Below, in pieces: positions 2,301 to 25,812 of a stretch of DNA of 64,000 nucleotides. Source of the stretch: an uncultured Eubacteriales bacterium (lineage in GTDB: Bacteria > Bacillota > Clostridia > Acetivibrionales > CAVYEU01); assembly GCA_963767415.1 (NCBI GenBank), contig CAVYEU010000095.1, positions 2,959 through 66,958 of the forward strand. The letters are read 5' to 3'. The stretch's first letter is position 1. The number at the start of each line of letters is the position of its first letter. A program made the position numbers and the translations under genes. The notes under the pieces were generated by a model. That model saw only the letters and a program-made list of their open reading frames with translations, ran no database searches and was not told the DNA's origin.

Positions 2301-2957
2301 TCACAAATTTACTTGTTTTTTAAAATATTTTTCTTTCAAAAACGTTATAACTGCTGGAAGTATTGAAATAAATATTATTGCAAATATCACTAATGTAAAG
2401 TTATGTTTTACAGTGGGAATATTTCCAAAAAAGTAGCCTCCACACAAAAATAGTAACACCCATGATATACCACCCGCTAAATTATAAACAACAAATTTTG
2501 AATATTCCATTGAACCAATACCTGCAACAAAGGGAGCAAATGTACGAATAATCGGGATAAACCTAGCAAATATTATCGTCTTCCCTCCATACTTTTCATA
2601 AAAATCATGAGTCTTCATTAAATATTCTTTATTTAAAAATCTGATTTTTCCCTGACCAAAAATTTTTGGTCCAATGAATTTACCAATATGGTAGTTTACT
2701 GTATCCCCTGCAAATGCCGCAAATATCAGTAGAAAAGCTAAAAATCGGAATTGTAAGCTAGCTATGGCAGCGAACGTTCCAGCAACAAAAATCAAAGAAT
2801 CCCCTGGTAGAATTGGCATAACAACAAGCCCAGTCTCACAAAAAACGATTGCAAACAGAATCAGGTATGTAAACGCCCCATAGTTTTGTAGAATTGCTTG
2901 TAAATGCTTATCTAAATGAATAATAAAATCAAATAAAAATATTATAAAATCTACCAT
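2301..2957 (-). CDS. DedA/SNARE-associated family membrane protein
   Basis: 218 aa, multi-TM, with typical DedA motifs (FCETGLVVMPILPGDSLIFVAG...). Confidence 0.75.
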   Translation of the reverse strand: MVDFIIFLFDFIIHLDKHLQAILQNYGAFTYLILFAIVFCETGLVVMPILPGDSLIFVAGTFAAIASLQFRFLAFLLIFAAFAGDTVNYHIGKFIGPKIFGQGKIRFLNKEYLMKTHDFYEKYGGKTIIFARFIPIIRTFAPFVAGIGSMEYSKFVVYNLAGGISWVLLFLCGGYFFGNIPTVKHNFTLVIFAIIFISILPAVITFLKEKYFKKQVNL

Positions 2958-3062
2958 AACCTTCGATTCCTCCTATTTTTTATAGTACAACAACCGTTAC
3001 TATTATATACTTAATTGTAATTAGGTATATAGCTTTTTATTTTTAGGCAGAGGACAAGATTA

Positions 3063-4115
3063 TTATTTTAATTCATTTAATTGCTTTACCAAGCTATATG
3101 GAATTATTTGATTTGGTATTGTGTCTTTATATGCTCTTTCCTTATGCATATAATCAATAATCTCCTTGGATTTATAATCCTTAAATTTTGTAGCAACTAC
3201 TTCAAGAACACTTAACTCATCCAAAGAAAAATCTGAAATATTAACTTCTTTATTTGATTGGATCCTATAGCTTATATCATCATAGATTAATTCTTCAACT
3301 ACTTTTATTGTTGGTAATGCAATTATTTCATCGTATGCAATTGGCAAAGCTCCAAACAGCATATGTTTATATATTAATCCTGTCATTGATTTACCATGTC
3401 TTCCAAAGAAGATAGAATCAGCATACCACAAAAGATTCATGAGTTTGACTTTATAGAGGTTATCAACAAATTGTGAAAAATAGCCCATAACATTTGCAAC
3501 CTTGTCAATGTTTAAAATCTTGTATCCATTAAGATCACTCTCTTCTTCAAAATTAACATATTGGCTACTAATCTCTTGCCTCTTTAAATAGAGATTTCCA
3601 ACCTCTTCAACCCTATTTGTAATATTTTTGCGAATTCTAGAATACTTTTCTTGAATAAATCTATTCTTATGCTTATCAATACACTCCAAAGCAAACATAG
3701 GATTTACACGAACCATTCTCATTAGATTATCATAAGTTTCATCTTGTATCGTTTTGCTCTCATACCTTGTAACTGTGACATCTCCCCAACCAAGTATTGC
3801 AGATAAATCACTTTGGGTTAATTGATAATAATCACGAATACCTGCAATTTCGTTAGAAGTTAATAATCCATTCTTTTGACGATAGAAATTCCTTGCTCGG
3901 AGCAAATTTTCATCCATCAAACTAGCTGGAACAAATTCATTCTCTTCTTCATCACTTAATGGACATAAAAAATAAATTTCTTCATAATCTACTGTTTCAT
4001 CTTTTACAATGGCTTGAGACAATCTTCTCCTTTGCTCTAATGAATGAGCTTTGTTACAAAAAGGGCAATCCATGGTAATCATGCTGATTAGATAATCATT
4101 ATTCATATTCATCAC
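3063..4115 (-). CDS. putative antitoxin: MqsA-like Zn-ribbon + XRE HTH N-terminus fused to a Panacea/DUF4065-like C-terminal domain
   Basis: N-terminus has CPFC...C and an XRE-type HTH (LTSNEIAGIRDYYQLTQSDLSAILGWGDVTVTRYESKT). C-terminal segment KVKLMNLLWYADSIFFGRHGKSMTGLIYKHMLFGALPIAYDEI resembles the DUF4065/Panacea core (KLQKLLYFAq...G.PL...Y.A...GPV). The gene sits 15 nt downstream of an MqsR-like ORF, and a GAGAGGAG RBS precedes its ATG. Confidence 0.5.
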   Translation of the reverse strand: MMNMNNDYLISMITMDCPFCNKAHSLEQRRRLSQAIVKDETVDYEEIYFLCPLSDEEENEFVPASLMDENLLRARNFYRQKNGLLTSNEIAGIRDYYQLTQSDLSAILGWGDVTVTRYESKTIQDETYDNLMRMVRVNPMFALECIDKHKNRFIQEKYSRIRKNITNRVEEVGNLYLKRQEISSQYVNFEEESDLNGYKILNIDKVANVMGYFSQFVDNLYKVKLMNLLWYADSIFFGRHGKSMTGLIYKHMLFGALPIAYDEIIALPTIKVVEELIYDDISYRIQSNKEVNISDFSLDELSVLEVVATKFKDYKSKEIIDYMHKERAYKDTIPNQIIPYSLVKQLNELK

Positions 4116-4130
4116 TCCTCTCTCACCAAT

Positions 4131-4544
4131 TTAGGTATATGGTCTTTGTGTAGTCAATAGATACCTTGCAAAATGGAACGAAACACAAAAAACTTTGCAG
4201 TTTTTTCTATCCCTTATCTTTGCTTTTATATATACCTCTCGATTTTTTATTGTTTTACCAAATGCAAAGAAGGTAGGTAAGCCATTATCTTTATTATCAA
4301 TAAAAGTTTCCATGTACTCTGAAATATCTAGTGATAAAAGTTGATTTTTAACATCATGCCTATCAAAATCAAGTGCCAGCATAGTATTAAAAGTTGTATA
4401 TGGATCAGTTGGTAATTCATTTTTCTTTTTAGGAAGTATATCCAAATCCCTCAAAATATCAAAATTCGGATTAATCAACACTTCCTTAAGCACTTTTAAA
4501 AATATTATTAAATCGCTTTCAGGTGAAATTATTTTCAAACTCAC
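4131..4544 (-). CDS. putative MqsR-family toxin (mRNA interferase-like)
   Basis: 137 aa. Its C-terminal half (LSLDISEYMETFIDNKDNG...FAFGKTIKNREVYIKAKI...VFCVSFHFA) aligns by eye with E. coli MqsR (GLSESDFYKSMTTYSDHT...DVYRPRLVTGQVYLKITV...VLIVSFKEK). Toxin-first gene order matches mqsRA. Confidence 0.45.
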   Translation of the reverse strand: MSLKIISPESDLIIFLKVLKEVLINPNFDILRDLDILPKKKNELPTDPYTTFNTMLALDFDRHDVKNQLLSLDISEYMETFIDNKDNGLPTFFAFGKTIKNREVYIKAKIRDRKNCKVFCVSFHFARYLLTTQRPYT

Positions 4545-4674
4545 ATTTTCACCTCCATAATAATATTATATGCTATCAATTGATAGTTTGCAAATAAAAT
4601 TATTATCTTTTGATAATAATTTTATGCATAATAATTTTTGAATTTAGGTTTTTATTTTTTTAATTACAGCTAAA

Positions 4675-4702
4675 TTGACTTTGTCTACAACTATGTTATA
4701 AT
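4675..4702 (+). promoter_or_regulatory. sigma-A-type promoter for pgsA (TTGACT-16-TATAAT)
   Basis: TTGACT at 4675-4680, 16-nt spacer, TATAAT at 4697-4702. Confidence 0.5.
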
Positions 4703-4757
4703 GAGTCTCGGTTATTAATTTATGTAGACAACTATGACTTAATAGGAGTTGTTAAGA

Positions 4758-5381
4758 ATGAATCTTCCAAATAAGATAACGTTATCAAGAATATTTTTGG
4801 TACCTATCTTTATGTTATTTATTATACCATTCCCACTTTGGGTATTGGAGTCAAGCTATTTACACATAGTTCATTCTCAGCTGGTAATGCTTAATAACTT
4901 TATTTTGAAAAATGGCAATTATATCGCGGCAATATTCTTTATAATAGCCGCAAGTACAGATGGTGTTGATGGATATATAGCAAGAAAAAGGAAGCAGGTA
5001 ACCCGATTTGGCAAATTCTTAGATCCAATAGCTGATAAACTTTTGGTAACAGCTGCGCTTATAGCCTTGGTTGAACGTAATGACGTAACAGGGTGGGCTG
5101 CCATGATAATAGTAGGTCGAGAGTTTATTGTAACAGGGCTTAGGCTTGTAGCTGCAGGTGAAGGCATAGTAATTGCAGCGAGTAACTGGGGTAAAATAAA
5201 AACTGTTACACAAATGGTTGCTATTGTTGTCGCATTAATTAAAAATTATCCATTATCGTTTTTGACAGATATACCATTTGATAGATATTTCATGTTTATA
5301 GCTGTTGTTGTAACAATATATTCAGGATATGATTATATTAAGAAGAATATAAAAATTATTGGAGTAGGGCAAATCAGCTAA
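4758..5381 (+). CDS. pgsA: CDP-diacylglycerol--glycerol-3-phosphate 3-phosphatidyltransferase
   Basis: CDP-alcohol phosphotransferase motif DGVDGYIARKRKQVTRFGKFLDPIADK. ATG at 4758 follows a TAGGAG RBS; the ORF track starts 9 nt earlier at a TTG. Confidence 0.85.
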   Translation: MNLPNKITLSRIFLVPIFMLFIIPFPLWVLESSYLHIVHSQLVMLNNFILKNGNYIAAIFFIIAASTDGVDGYIARKRKQVTRFGKFLDPIADKLLVTAALIALVERNDVTGWAAMIIVGREFIVTGLRLVAAGEGIVIAASNWGKIKTVTQMVAIVVALIKNYPLSFLTDIPFDRYFMFIAVVVTIYSGYDYIKKNIKIIGVGQIS

Positions 5382-8664: not shown

Positions 8665-11600
8665 TCAGTTAATGTATATTTTCCCTGATTCAGATTCCTT
8701 ATTTGAGTTAAAATTATTAAATGTCACAGACAAGAAAAGTTTCAATCTATTTAATTGATTTACCTCGCTTGCGCCTGGATCATAGTCAATTGCAGTTATA
8801 TTTACGTTTGGATATTTTTCTTTTATCTTATTAAACATACCTCTTCCAGTTATATGATTTGGCATGCAAGAAAATGGCTGCATGCAGATTATATTATTTA
8901 TACCCTCTTCTAGAAATTCAACAACCTCAGCTGTTAGACACCATCCCTCTCCATAAGAATTGCATGTAGATAAGATATCAGATATATAGCCAGCCAAATC
9001 GGATATCTTATGGATATTGCGAAATCTTGAACTTCTGTTTAACTCTAGCATAATTGGTTTCATAAAATACTCTATGACTTTAATAATAGTATTTCCTAAA
9101 ATAAGATCCTTCTTTGCTCCACGAAGTTGCTTGAAATCTTGTATGCTAGAATAGGCACAATAGAGGAAAAAGTAAATGAACTCTGGCACCACAACTTCAA
9201 CACCTTCATTTTCTAAAAACTCAATTATTCTATTGTTTGCGGCAGTATTATATTTCAAATAAATCTCTCCAGTAACTCCAACTACAGGTTTTTTGATCTT
9301 TATGTACTCAAGAGCCTCAAAATCAAGGATTATTTGTTTTATATTCAGTTTAAAATATCTAAAACTTTCTTTACTTTCTAAATCATTACAGCATTTCTTT
9401 ATCCACTTATCCAAGAGTTCATTCGTAGATCCTTTTATTTTTTCATATGGACGAACAGCAAGTGATAAACGCATTAATAGATCCCCATATAGGAAAGCCA
9501 TGATACACCTAATCACAAGTTTAATGGTTATCTTAAATCCGGGGTTCTTTTCTAAACCTGAAAAACTGATTGGGAAGACAGGAACTTCGTCATAACCTGC
9601 ATCAAATAAAGCTTTTCTTACAGTTCCAGTATAATTTGTAAATCTGCACCCCCCGCCAGATTGATAAAACATAATTGAGGTATTATGTAAATCATATTTT
9701 TTTGATTTTAGTGCAGTTAATATTTGACCAACTATAATTATAGCTGGTAAGCAAAGATCATTATTAACATACTTTAAACCCTCATCCAAAACTTCTCTAT
9801 CTGTATTTTGCAATAGCTCAACATTATAATTAGAGTTCTTTAAAACTGAAGCCAAAAGCCTAAAATGTATTGGAGCCATTTCTGGAATCAGAATTGTATG
9901 CGATTTTTTCATTTCTTTTGTAAATCTTATTATCTTTCTTGGCTTTTTTGGGTCTTCTAATATATCTTCATTTCTATTTTTATCATTGATTACTGCCTTT
10001 AATGATCGTATTCGTATTTTGATAGCACCCAAGTTTTTTATCTCATCAATCTTTATAATAGTGTAAATCTTATTCTTGCTTGTTAAGATTTCTTTTGCCT
10101 GCTCAGAAGTAATCGCGTCAAGCCCACAACCAAAAGAGGTTAACTGAATAAGGTCAAGATCTTTCATATCTCTTACAAAGCTTGCTGCAGCATATAACCT
10201 GGAATGGTACATCCATTGGTCAATAAATAACGTTGGTCTATCAACCTTAGCTAAATGGCTTACCGAATCTTCGGTGAGAACCGCTGAACCCAATGATTTT
10301 ATGAGGCTTGGTATTCCTTGATGTATTTCAGGATCAAGGTGATACGGCCTGCCACTAAGCACAATCCCTGACTTTCCAGTAATTCGTAAGTAATCTAAAA
10401 CCCTTTCACCTTCTTGTCTTATTTCAGCTTTAAACCTGCTACTCTCTAAAAAAGCTGATTCTACTGCATTACTAACCTCTTTTTGAGACACTCCAAATCT
10501 ATTAAGTGTATTATAAAGATTTTCTATTAGCTTTTTAATATTAGTAAAGGAAAGAAACGGATTTAAATATAGAACCCCTTCTTGATTCATCAAATCTATA
10601 TTATTTTTTATAACCTCTGGATAACATGCTACCATTGAACAGTTATAATTGTTACTTGCTTCGTCGAACTCTTTTACTTCATAAGGTACGCACGGATAGA
10701 ATATAGTTTTAATTCCTTTTCTTACAAGGGAAATTATATGCCCATGGGCAAGTTTGACAGGGTAGCATACTGTATCTGATGGGATTGTCTCAATCCCTAG
10801 TTCATATATTTCTTTTGAAGAATCTGGCGAGAGTTCTACTCTAAATTTTAAGTATGTAAAAAAAGTATACCAAAACGGATAATTCTCATACATATTTAGA
10901 ACCCTTGGGATACCTATTATCCCTCTTATTCCCTCATCATTTGAAAGTGGTATATATGAAAAAAGTCTTTTTAATTTGTACTCATAAAGATTAGGAACCT
11001 CATTCGATTCTTTATTGATTGATTCTCCTCTTTCACACTTATTACCAAAAATTAATTTATTCTTGCCATGTAAGTTCATAATGGTAAGTAAACATCGATT
11101 GTTACATCTTGAACACCTTGTATTTTCAGTTGAATATGAAAAATTTGATAATTCATTCTTCGATATTAAAGTCGAGGGACACCCGTCCTTGTATTGTTCC
11201 TTAGCTAGTATGGCAGCTCCAAAGGCACCCATTAAACCTGATATATCTGGTCTGATCACATCTTTGCCTGATATAAGCTCAAAACACCTTAATACTGCAT
11301 TATTATAAAAAGTTCCTCCTTGAACGATAACTCGTTCGCCTATTTCATCAGAATTTCTTAGTCTTATTACCTTATTTAGTGCATTTTTAATAACAGAGTA
11401 CGATAGCCCTGCTGAAATATCTCCGATTGTTGCTCCATCTTTTTGAGCTTGTTTAACTTTAGAGTTCATAAAAACTGTGCACCTTGTCCCTAAGTCAATA
11501 GGACTTTTAGCAAATAATGATTTTTCAACAAATTCTTCCAAATCTATGTTTAATGAGTTTGAAAATGTCTGTAAGAATGAACCACAACCAGATGAGCATG

Positions 11601-12930
11601 CTTCATTAATTATAATATTTTGAATATGCCCGTTCTTTATTTTGATACACTTCATATCTTGTCCACCAATATCTAATATGAACTCAACATCTGGTAGAAA
11701 ATATTTGGCCGCCTTATAATGGGCTATTGTTTCAACTTCTCCTATATCAAAACCTAATGCTTTCTTTAAAAGATTTTCTCCATACCCAATAATTGCCGAG
11801 TGTACTATTTTTGTGCCATCTTTAATAGAGTCATAAACTTTTTTTAATATATTTACAGTTATCTCTAATGGTGTACCCTCGTTCACTTTATATATTGAAT
11901 AAAGAATGTTATTATTAGAATCAATGAGAATTGCCTTAGTTGTTGTCGATCCAGCATCTATACCTAAAAAGCAGTTGCCAGAATAGTCTTTTAGGTTCAC
12001 TCTTGGAGTTCTATGCTCATTATGCCTTAAGATGAACTTATCATATTCATTTTGATCCTTGAACAAGGGTGCAAGGTATACTTTAGGATCATCTTTATTA
12101 TTTTGTATTTTTGAAATATTTTTTAATATTAAATCTAGCGATACTGGGGAAAGCCCGACTGAAGATACTGCAGCCCCTATTGCTACAAACAGCTCAGAAG
12201 CACTGGGAATAATAACATTCTCTAGAGATAGATCAAGTGATTTAATAAATCTATTTCTAAGTTCTGATAAAAAGCTTAGTGGTCCTCCTAAAAAAGCGAC
12301 TTTACCTTTTATAGGCTTACCACAAGAAAGACCACCTAATATCTGGTTTACGACAGATTGAAAAATCGATGCTGCAATATTCTCTCTTGTTGCACCTTCA
12401 TTTATTAAAGCCTGAATATCTGTTTTTGCAAAGACACCACAACGGGCTGCGATTGGGTGTATTGTTGAAGAGTTCTTTGCAAGGAGGTTTAGCCCTCTTG
12501 CATCAGTTTTAAGTAGTGTTGCCATTTGATCAATAAAAGCTCCAGTGCCACCCGCACAAATACCATTCATTTTTAGGTCGATACTGTTTCCAAAGTAGAG
12601 TATTTTAGCATCTTCTCCCCCTAATTCAATTGCAACTTCAGTTTCAGGAATTCTCTTACTGATAGCAAGAGAACATGCGATTACCTCTTGTATATACTGA
12701 AGGTTTAATTCTTTTGAAATAGATATCCCACCTGAGCCTGTGACCGAGAAGCATATTGGAGAATCCTTGAATATAACTTTACATTCGCTTAGAATATCTA
12801 CTACAGTATTTCTTATATCAGAATAGTGACGTTTATATTTATGAAATAAAATATTAGAATTTTTATCCATTAACACGAATTTAACCGTTGTTGATCCGAT
12901 ATCTATACCACAGTACTTTAAATTACCCAT
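8665..12930 (-). CDS. large fused acyl-CoA dehydratase activase-related protein (two BadF/BadG/BcrA/BcrD-type ASKHA ATPase modules plus HgdB/DUF2229-like region)
   Basis: 1421 aa. Two actin-like ATPase starts (CGIDIGSTTVKFVLMD... and FLGIDAGSTTTKAILID...) and a Cys-rich HgdB-like C-terminal part, matching the ~1400-aa clostridial 'CoA-substrate-specific enzyme activase' fusions. Confidence 0.7.
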   Translation of the reverse strand: MGNLKYCGIDIGSTTVKFVLMDKNSNILFHKYKRHYSDIRNTVVDILSECKVIFKDSPICFSVTGSGGISISKELNLQYIQEVIACSLAISKRIPETEVAIELGGEDAKILYFGNSIDLKMNGICAGGTGAFIDQMATLLKTDARGLNLLAKNSSTIHPIAARCGVFAKTDIQALINEGATRENIAASIFQSVVNQILGGLSCGKPIKGKVAFLGGPLSFLSELRNRFIKSLDLSLENVIIPSASELFVAIGAAVSSVGLSPVSLDLILKNISKIQNNKDDPKVYLAPLFKDQNEYDKFILRHNEHRTPRVNLKDYSGNCFLGIDAGSTTTKAILIDSNNNILYSIYKVNEGTPLEITVNILKKVYDSIKDGTKIVHSAIIGYGENLLKKALGFDIGEVETIAHYKAAKYFLPDVEFILDIGGQDMKCIKIKNGHIQNIIINEACSSGCGSFLQTFSNSLNIDLEEFVEKSLFAKSPIDLGTRCTVFMNSKVKQAQKDGATIGDISAGLSYSVIKNALNKVIRLRNSDEIGERVIVQGGTFYNNAVLRCFELISGKDVIRPDISGLMGAFGAAILAKEQYKDGCPSTLISKNELSNFSYSTENTRCSRCNNRCLLTIMNLHGKNKLIFGNKCERGESINKESNEVPNLYEYKLKRLFSYIPLSNDEGIRGIIGIPRVLNMYENYPFWYTFFTYLKFRVELSPDSSKEIYELGIETIPSDTVCYPVKLAHGHIISLVRKGIKTIFYPCVPYEVKEFDEASNNYNCSMVACYPEVIKNNIDLMNQEGVLYLNPFLSFTNIKKLIENLYNTLNRFGVSQKEVSNAVESAFLESSRFKAEIRQEGERVLDYLRITGKSGIVLSGRPYHLDPEIHQGIPSLIKSLGSAVLTEDSVSHLAKVDRPTLFIDQWMYHSRLYAAASFVRDMKDLDLIQLTSFGCGLDAITSEQAKEILTSKNKIYTIIKIDEIKNLGAIKIRIRSLKAVINDKNRNEDILEDPKKPRKIIRFTKEMKKSHTILIPEMAPIHFRLLASVLKNSNYNVELLQNTDREVLDEGLKYVNNDLCLPAIIIVGQILTALKSKKYDLHNTSIMFYQSGGGCRFTNYTGTVRKALFDAGYDEVPVFPISFSGLEKNPGFKITIKLVIRCIMAFLYGDLLMRLSLAVRPYEKIKGSTNELLDKWIKKCCNDLESKESFRYFKLNIKQIILDFEALEYIKIKKPVVGVTGEIYLKYNTAANNRIIEFLENEGVEVVVPEFIYFFLYCAYSSIQDFKQLRGAKKDLILGNTIIKVIEYFMKPIMLELNRSSRFRNIHKISDLAGYISDILSTCNSYGEGWCLTAEVVEFLEEGINNIICMQPFSCMPNHITGRGMFNKIKEKYPNVNITAIDYDPGASEVNQLNRLKLFLSVTFNNFNSNKESESGKIYIN

Positions 12931-23946: not shown

Positions 23947-25812
23947 TTATTCTTTAATCGTGTTTAATGCAACTTCATCTCTTGACATCTGTAATGGCAT
24001 TGTAGCTATAACGATATGTTTATGCCTTAATAACTGTTTTTCTACATACGCCCTGGTATGATTGTGCAAGATCTTATGCCACCAAGATTTAACACCAAAT
24101 TCTGGAAGAATCACAGTTATCATGTCACCTTTTTTATAGTCATACTCTACAGATTCAATAAATTTGAGTAGTGGCTCAACGATTTTTCTAAATGGAGAAT
24201 ACTTTACAACTAAAGGTATATCTGTATTAATCTGTCTCCATGTACTTTCTATCCTGTCTCTACCTTCCTCATCTATTGATATATTAAATGCAACAACATT
24301 ATCTGAAATCGTTTTAGCATAGCGCAATGCTCTAATACTAGCTTTATTTACTCCTTGTATTGGGACAATAACACGATTCCTATAGTTTGTATTTGAAATA
24401 TCTACCTGAGATAATTCTTCGGGTTTTATCCTAAGTTGCTTTGATATAGCAGTATAATGATTCTTAACCTTTTTCATTATAATAACAAGTATTGGAATTA
24501 GGATTACTACGATCCATGCACCTTCATTAAATTTTGAAACAGCAATTATAGCTACTACAATAAAAGTAACCAATGATCCAAACCCATTAATAATTGCTTT
24601 TATTATCCAATTCTTTCCCTTATGTCTATTCCATTTTAAAAACATACCAAATTGAGATAGTGTGAAAGAAATAAAAACCCCAACAGCGTACAATCCAATC
24701 AACGATGTTACATTAGCCCTAAATAACGTAATTAACAGAGTCGCTATCGCTGATAAAATAATTATTCCATTTGAATAACTAAGTCTATCTCCTTTTATTG
24801 TTAACTGTCTTGGAGCGTATCCCTCATATGCCATAATAGATACAAGCAATGGGAACCCTGAATATGCAGTATTCGCAGCCATAATCAATATAATAAATGT
24901 TGTTGCTGTAACATAATAAAACATAAAATTATTTCCAAAAATTAGTTCTGCAATCTGAATAAGCACTGCCCCGTTTTCGGGTACCACATGATATATATTT
25001 GCAAGAATTGAAGTTCCACCAAACAATAACAGTACTACTAAGGAAAGTAAAATCAATACTGTTTTTGCATATTTTACTGAAGGACTTTTAAATGCTGGAA
25101 CAGCATTACTTACAGCCTCAACACCAGTAAGTGCAGTACATCCACTTGAAAAAGCCTTTAGAAGTAAAATCAAAGTAATAGGTTGTCCAATCGACCGTAT
25201 TGTTGGTTCAGGAGGAACAAAACCCATTTTATACTTTATTATCCCAAGTATTATCATACCAAGAATCCCAAAGATGAATGCATAAGCAGGAATTCCAAAC
25301 ATACGTGATGATTCACGTACTCCTCTTAAATTACCAACCATTAAAATCGAAACCATAAAGATACATATTAATACTGTATATGGACAAAGTGAAGTAAATG
25401 CAGAGGTTATTTGTTCTACCCCTGAGGACACACTAACTGCAACCGTTAATATATAATCAATTGATAATGCTGCACCTGCTATAATTCCAGCTGTTGCACC
25501 AATATTATCTTTCGCAACAATATATGCACCGCCACCATTAGGGTAATTGTCAATTGTTTGGGTATAAGACAAAGTCAACAAAATCAAAAGACCTATTATC
25601 GCTAATGATATATAGGTCAGTTGAGAATACGCTAAAAGCCCTATAGCTGGGATTAAAACCAGCAATATTTCTTGTCCTGCGTAGGCAACCGAAGAAATCG
25701 CATCGCTTGATAAAATCGGCAAGCCCCAAAGGACATTATATTTTTCATCATTCATTAATTCATTTTTTAAAGGTCTTCCAATCACAACTCTTTTTAGTTC
25801 CTTAACAGTCAT
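23947..25812 (-). CDS. kimA: KimA/YdaO-family K+ importer (APC superfamily, C-terminal cytoplasmic domain)
   Basis: 621 aa. Aligns along its whole length with B. subtilis KimA (GRPLKN...LSSDAISSVAYAGQEIL...YPNGGGAYIVAKDNIG...LLKAFSSGCTALTGVEAVSNAVPAFK...KNHYTAISKQLRI...WHKILHNH). Confidence 0.8.
   Translation of the reverse strand: MTVKELKRVVIGRPLKNELMNDEKYNVLWGLPILSSDAISSVAYAGQEILLVLIPAIGLLAYSQLTYISLAIIGLLILLTLSYTQTIDNYPNGGGAYIVAKDNIGATAGIIAGAALSIDYILTVAVSVSSGVEQITSAFTSLCPYTVLICIFMVSILMVGNLRGVRESSRMFGIPAYAFIFGILGMIILGIIKYKMGFVPPEPTIRSIGQPITLILLLKAFSSGCTALTGVEAVSNAVPAFKSPSVKYAKTVLILLSLVVLLLFGGTSILANIYHVVPENGAVLIQIAELIFGNNFMFYYVTATTFIILIMAANTAYSGFPLLVSIMAYEGYAPRQLTIKGDRLSYSNGIIILSAIATLLITLFRANVTSLIGLYAVGVFISFTLSQFGMFLKWNRHKGKNWIIKAIINGFGSLVTFIVVAIIAVSKFNEGAWIVVILIPILVIIMKKVKNHYTAISKQLRIKPEELSQVDISNTNYRNRVIVPIQGVNKASIRALRYAKTISDNVVAFNISIDEEGRDRIESTWRQINTDIPLVVKYSPFRKIVEPLLKFIESVEYDYKKGDMITVILPEFGVKSWWHKILHNHTRAYVEKQLLRHKHIVIATMPLQMSRDEVALNTIKE

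Follow-up and report, generated by a model that had tools for sequence, protein, structure and literature searches.

Among the toxin domains that can be recognised beside DUF4065/Panacea antitoxins (PanA), the MqsR-like domain is the most frequent (n = 90), and the MqsR–Panacea pairing had been predicted as early as 2013 (Kurata 2022, PMC8832971). Two such pairs, the MqsR(D2):PanA pairs of Bacillus fungorum and Lactobacillus rossiae, proved toxic and were neutralised by their antitoxins, which are annotated 'Panacea; ZBD (MqsA); HTH', that is, with a zinc-binding domain (ZBD) and a helix-turn-helix (HTH) domain (Ernits 2023, PMC10440598). For B. fungorum it was shown that the toxin is neutralised by the ZBD or the ZBD-HTH portion of PanA but not by Panacea or HTH-Panacea, and that a change at Y97 of MqsR abolishes toxicity; Panacea was proposed as a sensor (PMC10440598). 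Here we describe one more member of this class, a toxin–antitoxin (TA) gene pair in a 64,000-nt stretch of contig CAVYEU010000095.1 from an uncultured Eubacteriales bacterium, which in its whole length we call the window and whose positions we use throughout. An earlier note, made from the letters alone, had thought this architecture uncommon; the counts above and the validation in two species contradict that, the class having already been published, catalogued and tested in other bacteria.

We hold it highly probable that the two genes form an autoregulated type II TA operon and belong to the published PanAT class 'MqsR-like toxin : PanA(ZBD-HTH-Panacea)', in which the ZBD neutralises the toxin and the Panacea domain is not the neutraliser. 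There are two co-directional minus-strand open reading frames (ORFs), of 137 aa (4131..4544) and 350 aa (3063..4115). The first is the toxin gene (4131..4544, minus strand, 137 aa, GTG start), encoding a putative RNase of the MqsR fold, of PanT group T2 / NetFlax node D2 type; it lies upstream of the antitoxin gene in the same orientation, and 67 of 81 homologous loci (80 from species-representative genomes plus one identical public contig) have a toxin homologue immediately before the antitoxin gene on that strand, so that the toxin-first operon previously proposed stands. Of the two ORF lengths reported earlier, the 137 aa hold, while the 350 aa describe the longest ORF, from a GTG at 4115; the true antitoxin most probably has 347 aa and begins at the ATG at 4106 (3063..4106, minus strand, stop codon 3063–3065), because almost all of the best 120 antitoxin homologues have that length and because a Shine-Dalgarno-like GAGGAG (4115–4120) fits this ATG best. 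The gap from the toxin stop to this ATG is 24 nt.

Dataset S1 of Kurata 2022 enters Trichococcus patagoniensis DSM 18806 and Proteiniclasticum ruminis ML2 under PanT cluster T2 (the MqsR cluster) with PanA(HTH), in the order T|A and with gaps of 30 and 36 nt (PMC8832971). Two of our loci (L027 and L036) match these entries in strain and in toxin–antitoxin gap, with antitoxins that share 65% and 57% identity with that of the window. The T2 pairs of T. patagoniensis, P. ruminis, Clostridium putrefaciens and probably Alkaliphilus metalliredigens belong to the same homologous family as the window pair and share with it the T|A order and a short gap (10–36 nt vs. 24 nt in the window), whereas the N-terminal part of their antitoxins is annotated in that dataset as 'HTH' only; the uncultured low-GC Firmicute from which the window comes was not found there as far as the dataset was searched. 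In the NetFlax dataset A. metalliredigens appears as 'Panacea : D2', the same node (D2) to which the validated pairs of B. fungorum and L. rossiae belong (PMC10440598). These two pairs (for B. fungorum, WP_099686063.1 / WP_099686064.1) likewise join an MqsR-type toxin to a ZBD(MqsA)-HTH-Panacea PanA, with a similar domain boundary (ZBD-HTH 1–174 in B. fungorum, ~1–182 in the window PanA), and the catalytic Y97 of B. fungorum most plausibly corresponds to Y105 of the window toxin.

Domains of the antitoxin and the toxin

The antitoxin scored 76.4 bits against NCBIfam TIGR03830 (type II TA system antitoxin MqsA family; cutoff 61.8, E = 1.6e-21, residues 17–140) and 59.7 bits against Pfam SocA_Panacea (PF13274; gathering score 25.7, 6.6e-16, profile positions 1–113 of 113, residues 225–330), in agreement with the MqsA-like zinc-ribbon/HTH plus Panacea architecture that the earlier note had read in it; against Pfam MqsA_antitoxin (PF15731) it was sub-threshold (22.6 vs. 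a gathering score of 30 bits). The motifs quoted for both proteins are all present: CPFC and KLMNLLWYAD...GKSMTG...GALP in the antitoxin, L.xSxY...D...VYxK...SF in the 137-aa ORF. An AlphaFold2 model of the antitoxin (pLDDT 82) has four parts, namely an N-terminal three-stranded beta-sheet (strands 5–13, 20–34 and 37–47), a helical HTH region, a long helix (152–182) and an alpha/beta C-terminal domain. In the 347-aa numbering the sheet is the ZBD (3933..4106, minus strand, residues ~1–58) and bears C14, C17, H21 and C48. It is followed, as in the MqsA family, by an XRE-type HTH domain (3672..3926, minus strand, residues ~61–145), the putative dimerisation and DNA-binding module, whose T-x-x-R-Y-E-x-K motif is invariant in 81 of 81 sequences and aligns with the RYE-containing segment of MqsA. 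The Panacea (DUF4065) domain is placed by its Pfam match at 3126..3443 (minus strand; 225–330 of the 350-aa ORF), within a folded domain of about residues 200–342.

Foldseek returned no matches for the whole antitoxin chain. In the antitoxin match list the top entry was the DarG C-terminal domain (7yk3_D, 8.4), followed by the HigA2 HTH (5j9i_A, 6.6), LmuC (9ny5_C and 9hqx_d, 6.2 and 5.6), MqsA (3gn5_A, 5.5) and the MqsA HTH domain (3fmy_A, 5.4, 23% identity); the antitoxin profile met MqsA among PDB sequences only marginally (E 0.22–0.6). The C-terminal domain of DarG has recently been stated to be homologous to DUF4065 (PMC13621843), so that the top match reflects the likeness of the Panacea domain to a relative of known structure. 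DarG and SocA are further antitoxins that contain a Panacea/DUF4065 domain; in DarG (PDB 7YK3) this domain itself binds and inhibits the toxin, whereas in the architecture of the window a separate zinc domain would be expected to do so. That Panacea rather than the ZBD binds and neutralises the toxin here as well, as is implied by the earlier note's remark that the domain counters a wide range of unrelated toxins, strikes us as very unlikely: Panacea does directly neutralise some toxins in other PanAT pairs (PMC10440598), and in the family of the window antitoxin it is highly conserved, with an invariant KxKLMxLLW..D block, but in the only dissected pair of the same architecture, that of B. 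fungorum, the ZBD alone suffices while Panacea alone and HTH-Panacea fail, and the window antitoxin carries a complete, conserved MqsA-type ZBD.

The zinc ligands of E. coli MqsA are Cys3, Cys6, Cys37 and Cys40, which have been termed perfectly conserved in MqsA homologues (PMC2791442). The zinc ribbon of the window antitoxin (3954–4067, residues 14–51) departs from this four-cysteine pattern (CxxC...CxxC) in having three cysteines only, C14, C17 and C48. Among the aligned antitoxins C14, C17 and H21 are invariant (79 of 79 sequences), as is C48 (80 of 80), and His21 is likely to be the fourth ligand of a predicted Cys-Cys-His-Cys (Cys3-His) zinc site.

The toxin is best placed by its fold. 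Its own match to Pfam MqsR_toxin (PF15723) is weak, with E = 0.0017 over profile positions 24–94 of 95, while 24 of 35 toxin relatives match the profile at E < 0.01 (best 1e-6) and some relatives carry a precomputed PF15723 label. Homology to MqsR is not established by sequence alone; the fold search establishes it, matching the predicted structure of the toxin to the three-dimensional fold of MqsR. The assignment thus rests on the fold, the family-wide weak PF15723 matches and the context. The E. coli MqsR/MqsA pair (PDB 3HI2, 3GN5; PMC2791442) is like that of the window in its toxin-first operon and RelE-like MqsR fold, and E. coli MqsA resembles the window PanA in an N-terminal zinc domain, which in MqsA binds the toxin, followed by an XRE HTH, C-terminal in MqsA, with an S/T-R-Y-E motif. 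The window antitoxin differs in an extra long helix, a 150-aa Panacea domain and predicted C-C-H-C ligands instead of four Cys; the toxin differs in size (137 aa with an N-terminal extension vs. 98 aa for E. coli MqsR), its sequence similarity is marginal, and K56, Q68 and K96 of E. coli MqsR appear not to be conserved in it.

Those three residues and Y81 are required for the toxicity of E. coli MqsR (PMC2791442). In our alignments to E. coli MqsR, which are of low confidence, only Y81 is kept, as Y105 (49 of 50 sequences); K56 aligns with E79 (codon 4308–4310), a position at which 44 of 50 sequences have Glu and the Bacillaceae-type toxins Lys, K96 aligns with an invariant His, H124 (codon 4173–4175), and the position of Q68 is neither Gln nor conserved. 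The residues that are not kept may reflect a different catalytic set, the RNase having perhaps exchanged its catalytic residues while keeping the MqsR fold. K107, S122 and H124 are invariant in the toxin family and Y105 nearly so, and the active site is likely to comprise Y105, K107, H124 and the highly conserved E79. YoeB/RNase Sa-type RNases use Glu and His and were set against MqsR in this respect by Brown et al. (PMC2791442); the invariant His and conserved Glu of the toxin recall that chemistry.

The same substitutions could be taken to mean that the toxin is catalytically altered or inactive, PanA being mainly an autoregulated transcription factor or an 'anti-addiction' antitoxin and the pair a TA relic, a reading that would also fit the toxin decay among relatives described below. 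We think this unlikely. The window toxin ORF is full length with every family-invariant residue, the mean column identity of 77% across genera speaks for purifying selection on the toxin family, and the combination of invariant H124, K107 and S122 with near-invariant Y105 is an active-site-like pattern whose Glu and His have their counterpart in YoeB/RNase Sa-type enzymes.

Several observations weigh against our assignment of the pair to the MqsR:PanA class and against the functions that we read into it. The toxin's PF15723 score, 19.2 bits, lies below the gathering score of 26.2, so that of the profile searches called for in the earlier note the one for SocA_Panacea succeeded and the one for MqsR_toxin fell short, leaving 'MqsR-like' carried by the fold, the family and the context. 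MqsR was not found in PDB sequences with the toxin alone or with the toxin family profile, and hhalign of that profile against the E. coli MqsR sequence gave the expected register at a non-significant E of 0.15. Two of the four E. coli toxicity residues appear to be replaced (K56 by E79, K96 by H124) and that at Q68 is not Gln, as far as the low-confidence alignments tell. The zinc site is without the canonical fourth Cys (position 51), which just 9 of 77 relatives have and which is Ser in the window antitoxin. PADLOC has no model that matches the toxin or the antitoxin. Of the characterised pairs, the validated members appear more distant from the window subfamily, the Bacillaceae relatives in our set being ~39–45% identical, and the MqsR:PanA of Herbaspirillum was toxic in E. 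coli and not rescued by its own PanA (Kurata 2022, PMC8832971).

Promoter and probable operator

The palindrome that the earlier note had placed about 30 nt upstream of the toxin, as a possible operator, lies 29 nt from the toxin GTG if its 12-mer core TATCAATTGATA is counted (4574–4585), and is embedded in a promoter. The latter is of sigma-70 type (4565..4593, minus strand; 10 of 12 matches in the scan), with a -35 element TTGCAA (4593–4588), a 17-nt spacer and a -10 element TATAAT (4570–4565); within the spacer stands the probable operator O1 (4573..4586), the perfect 14-bp palindrome CTATCAATTGATAG. Downstream of it a Shine-Dalgarno sequence, GGAGGTG (4550–4556, minus strand), precedes the GTG by 5 nt, and the aligned upstream regions of homologous loci have a motif of similar GGAGG type at this position. 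The core TATCAATTGATA occurs as a single exact copy in the 64-kb window; a copy with one mismatch, AATCAATTGATA, at 25455–25466 is probably meaningless, about one such copy being expected by chance.

Exact TATCAATTGATA was found in 59 of the 81 homologous loci, in one or two copies each and always just upstream of the pair or, in loci lacking the toxin gene, of the antitoxin. In most of 44 aligned upstream regions the palindrome lies inside the spacer of a promoter whose -35 resembles TTGACA and whose -10 resembles TATAAT, the layout TTGACA-N-CTATCAATTGATAG-N-TATAAT being common to many homologous loci, and it is kept even where the antitoxins are only ~40% identical. From its position in the -35/-10 spacer the palindrome is very probably an operator, and its conservation amounts to strong phylogenetic footprinting for one that would block RNA polymerase and be bound by PanA. 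No description of this operator was found in the literature. The E. coli MqsA operator is of the ACCT-N-AGGT type, which differs from CTATCAATTGATAG. E. coli MqsA binds two palindromes in its own promoter (PMC2791442), and the window has one strong and one weaker candidate. The latter, a possible second operator O2 (4594..4625), lies 30 bp upstream of O1, where a perfect 14-nt inverted repeat (I2 and I4) is centred on TATCTTTTGATA (4604–4615). Of 59 loci, 15 have another site no further than 80 nt from O1 and with no more than two mismatches, the background rate being 0.025 matches per 160 nt; such a site is not universal, and the case for O2 is weaker than that for O1.

Taken with the domain assignments and with what is known of homologues, this arrangement suggests how the operon would work. 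The single sigma-70 promoter (4565–4593) would drive the toxin and then the antitoxin; free toxin, of MqsR/RelE fold, would cleave mRNA and so arrest translation and growth. PanA would dimerise through its XRE HTH and, judging from the conservation of the site, bind the spacer-filling CTATCAATTGATAG and repress its own operon, while its N-terminal zinc-binding beta-domain, if the B. fungorum truncations are a guide, would sequester and neutralise the toxin. The C-terminal Panacea domain would not be the neutraliser here; under the favoured published hypothesis it senses an activating cue. Of all this, the gene pair, its folds and domain families and the conservation of pairing and of the palindrome are established by the present analysis, while toxicity, RNase activity, the binding of zinc and of DNA and the part played by Panacea are inferred from homologues and from conservation.

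Distribution, mobility and toxin decay

The searches gave 177 toxin and 660 antitoxin homologues, mostly in Clostridia and other Firmicutes and with many metagenome-assembled genomes (MAGs) among them, and the pair recurs across dozens of genomes. In the window it lies between housekeeping genes, as had been noted earlier from the sequence: downstream is a DedA/VTT-domain gene (2301–2957) and upstream, divergent, a pgsA-like CDP-alcohol phosphatidyltransferase gene (4749–5381), both identities agreeing with the Pfam labels on the identical public contig. None of the window's neighbours (ilvC, ilvN, DedA, pgsA and others) is shared by any of the 80 related loci. Vertical inheritance of the locus was rejected for this lack of synteny, and we take the module to be mobile and horizontally spread, here inserted in the chromosome between housekeeping genes. 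The region 2900–4800 gave no intrinsic terminator, and the composition check found no GC anomaly marking an insertion.

Distant full-length relatives annotated 'MqsA family' are carried by plasmids of Clostridium estertheticum and C. tagluense, and human-gut phage contigs carry antitoxin relatives with up to 46% identity; the module may travel on phages. One unannotated human-gut 'Bacteriophage sp.' contig (MT835652.1, 11935–12972) encodes a PanA homologue of full length, whose alignment covers 100% of the query at 46% identity, and three further gut phage contigs hold PanA homologues at 35–37% identity. The PHROGs that matched were all generic repressor families or families of unknown function. 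A role compatible with the TA operon preferred here would be abortive-infection phage defence, with Panacea sensing a phage cue and freeing the MqsR-type RNase. That this is the pair's primary role we think rather unlikely, since besides the missing PADLOC models there are no adjacent defence or mobile-element genes in the window, where the flanks are ilvC/ilvN, DedA and pgsA, and a trigger is known for no PanA.

The state of the toxin gene varies among the ~77 loci in which it could be assessed: ~50 toxins are intact, ~19 are truncated or frameshifted, and 8 loci have no toxin homologue upstream, while PanA is full length in all of them. Some calls of a truncated or missing toxin could stem from errors in MAG assembly. 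Isolates are among the affected loci, namely Alkaliphilus serpentinus, Acetivibrio mesophilus and Hathewaya limosa. Toxin-less loci such as L015, L029 and L059 keep the TATCAATTGATA operator directly upstream of PanA. Further toxin-affected loci are L002 (513–764), L004 (3512–3976), L005 (3813–3971) and L046. The pattern suggests recurrent toxin decay with retention of an autoregulated antitoxin in about a third of loci. It need not mark the pair as a TA relic, repeated decay of the toxin being itself expected of a gene that is harmful when unguarded.

Elsewhere in the window, on the minus strand at 8665–12930, a 1421-aa ORF shows by eye two N-terminal actin-like ATPase repeats of BcrAD/BadFG type (2-hydroxyacyl-CoA dehydratase activase), followed by a large C-terminal region.

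Meaning for the PanA family

For the window itself the gain is little more than a correct annotation: all sources that name the 137-aa gene call it a 'hypothetical protein', and it can be named an MqsR-type PanT toxin instead. To the published class the locus and its relatives add details that are small and, as far as could be found, new, namely the predicted Cys-Cys-His-Cys site in place of four cysteines, the conserved CTATCAATTGATAG as probable operator, the apparent Glu and His at two E. coli MqsR lysine positions, and, in about one relative in three, an apparently lost or decayed toxin gene.

A further-reaching proposal, which we consider rather doubtful, is that the Clostridia-centred subfamily is a mechanistic variant of MqsRA, with a Glu79/His124 acid–base pair of YoeB/RNase Sa-like kind for the E. 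coli lysines, Cys3-His zinc, and a toxin-independent role for PanA. In that role PanA may serve either as a repressor, by way of the near-universal CTATCAATTGATAG operator, or as a sensor by means of its Panacea domain; if true, this would explain why PanA stays intact after toxin loss in about a third of genomes, several of which keep the operator.

What Panacea does where a separate domain neutralises the toxin is an open question in the published work. For that question the probable operator CTATCAATTGATAG, the probable Cys3-His zinc site and the candidate catalytic residues Y105, H124 and E79 offer handles, and the natural 'orphan' PanA loci form a useful comparison set.

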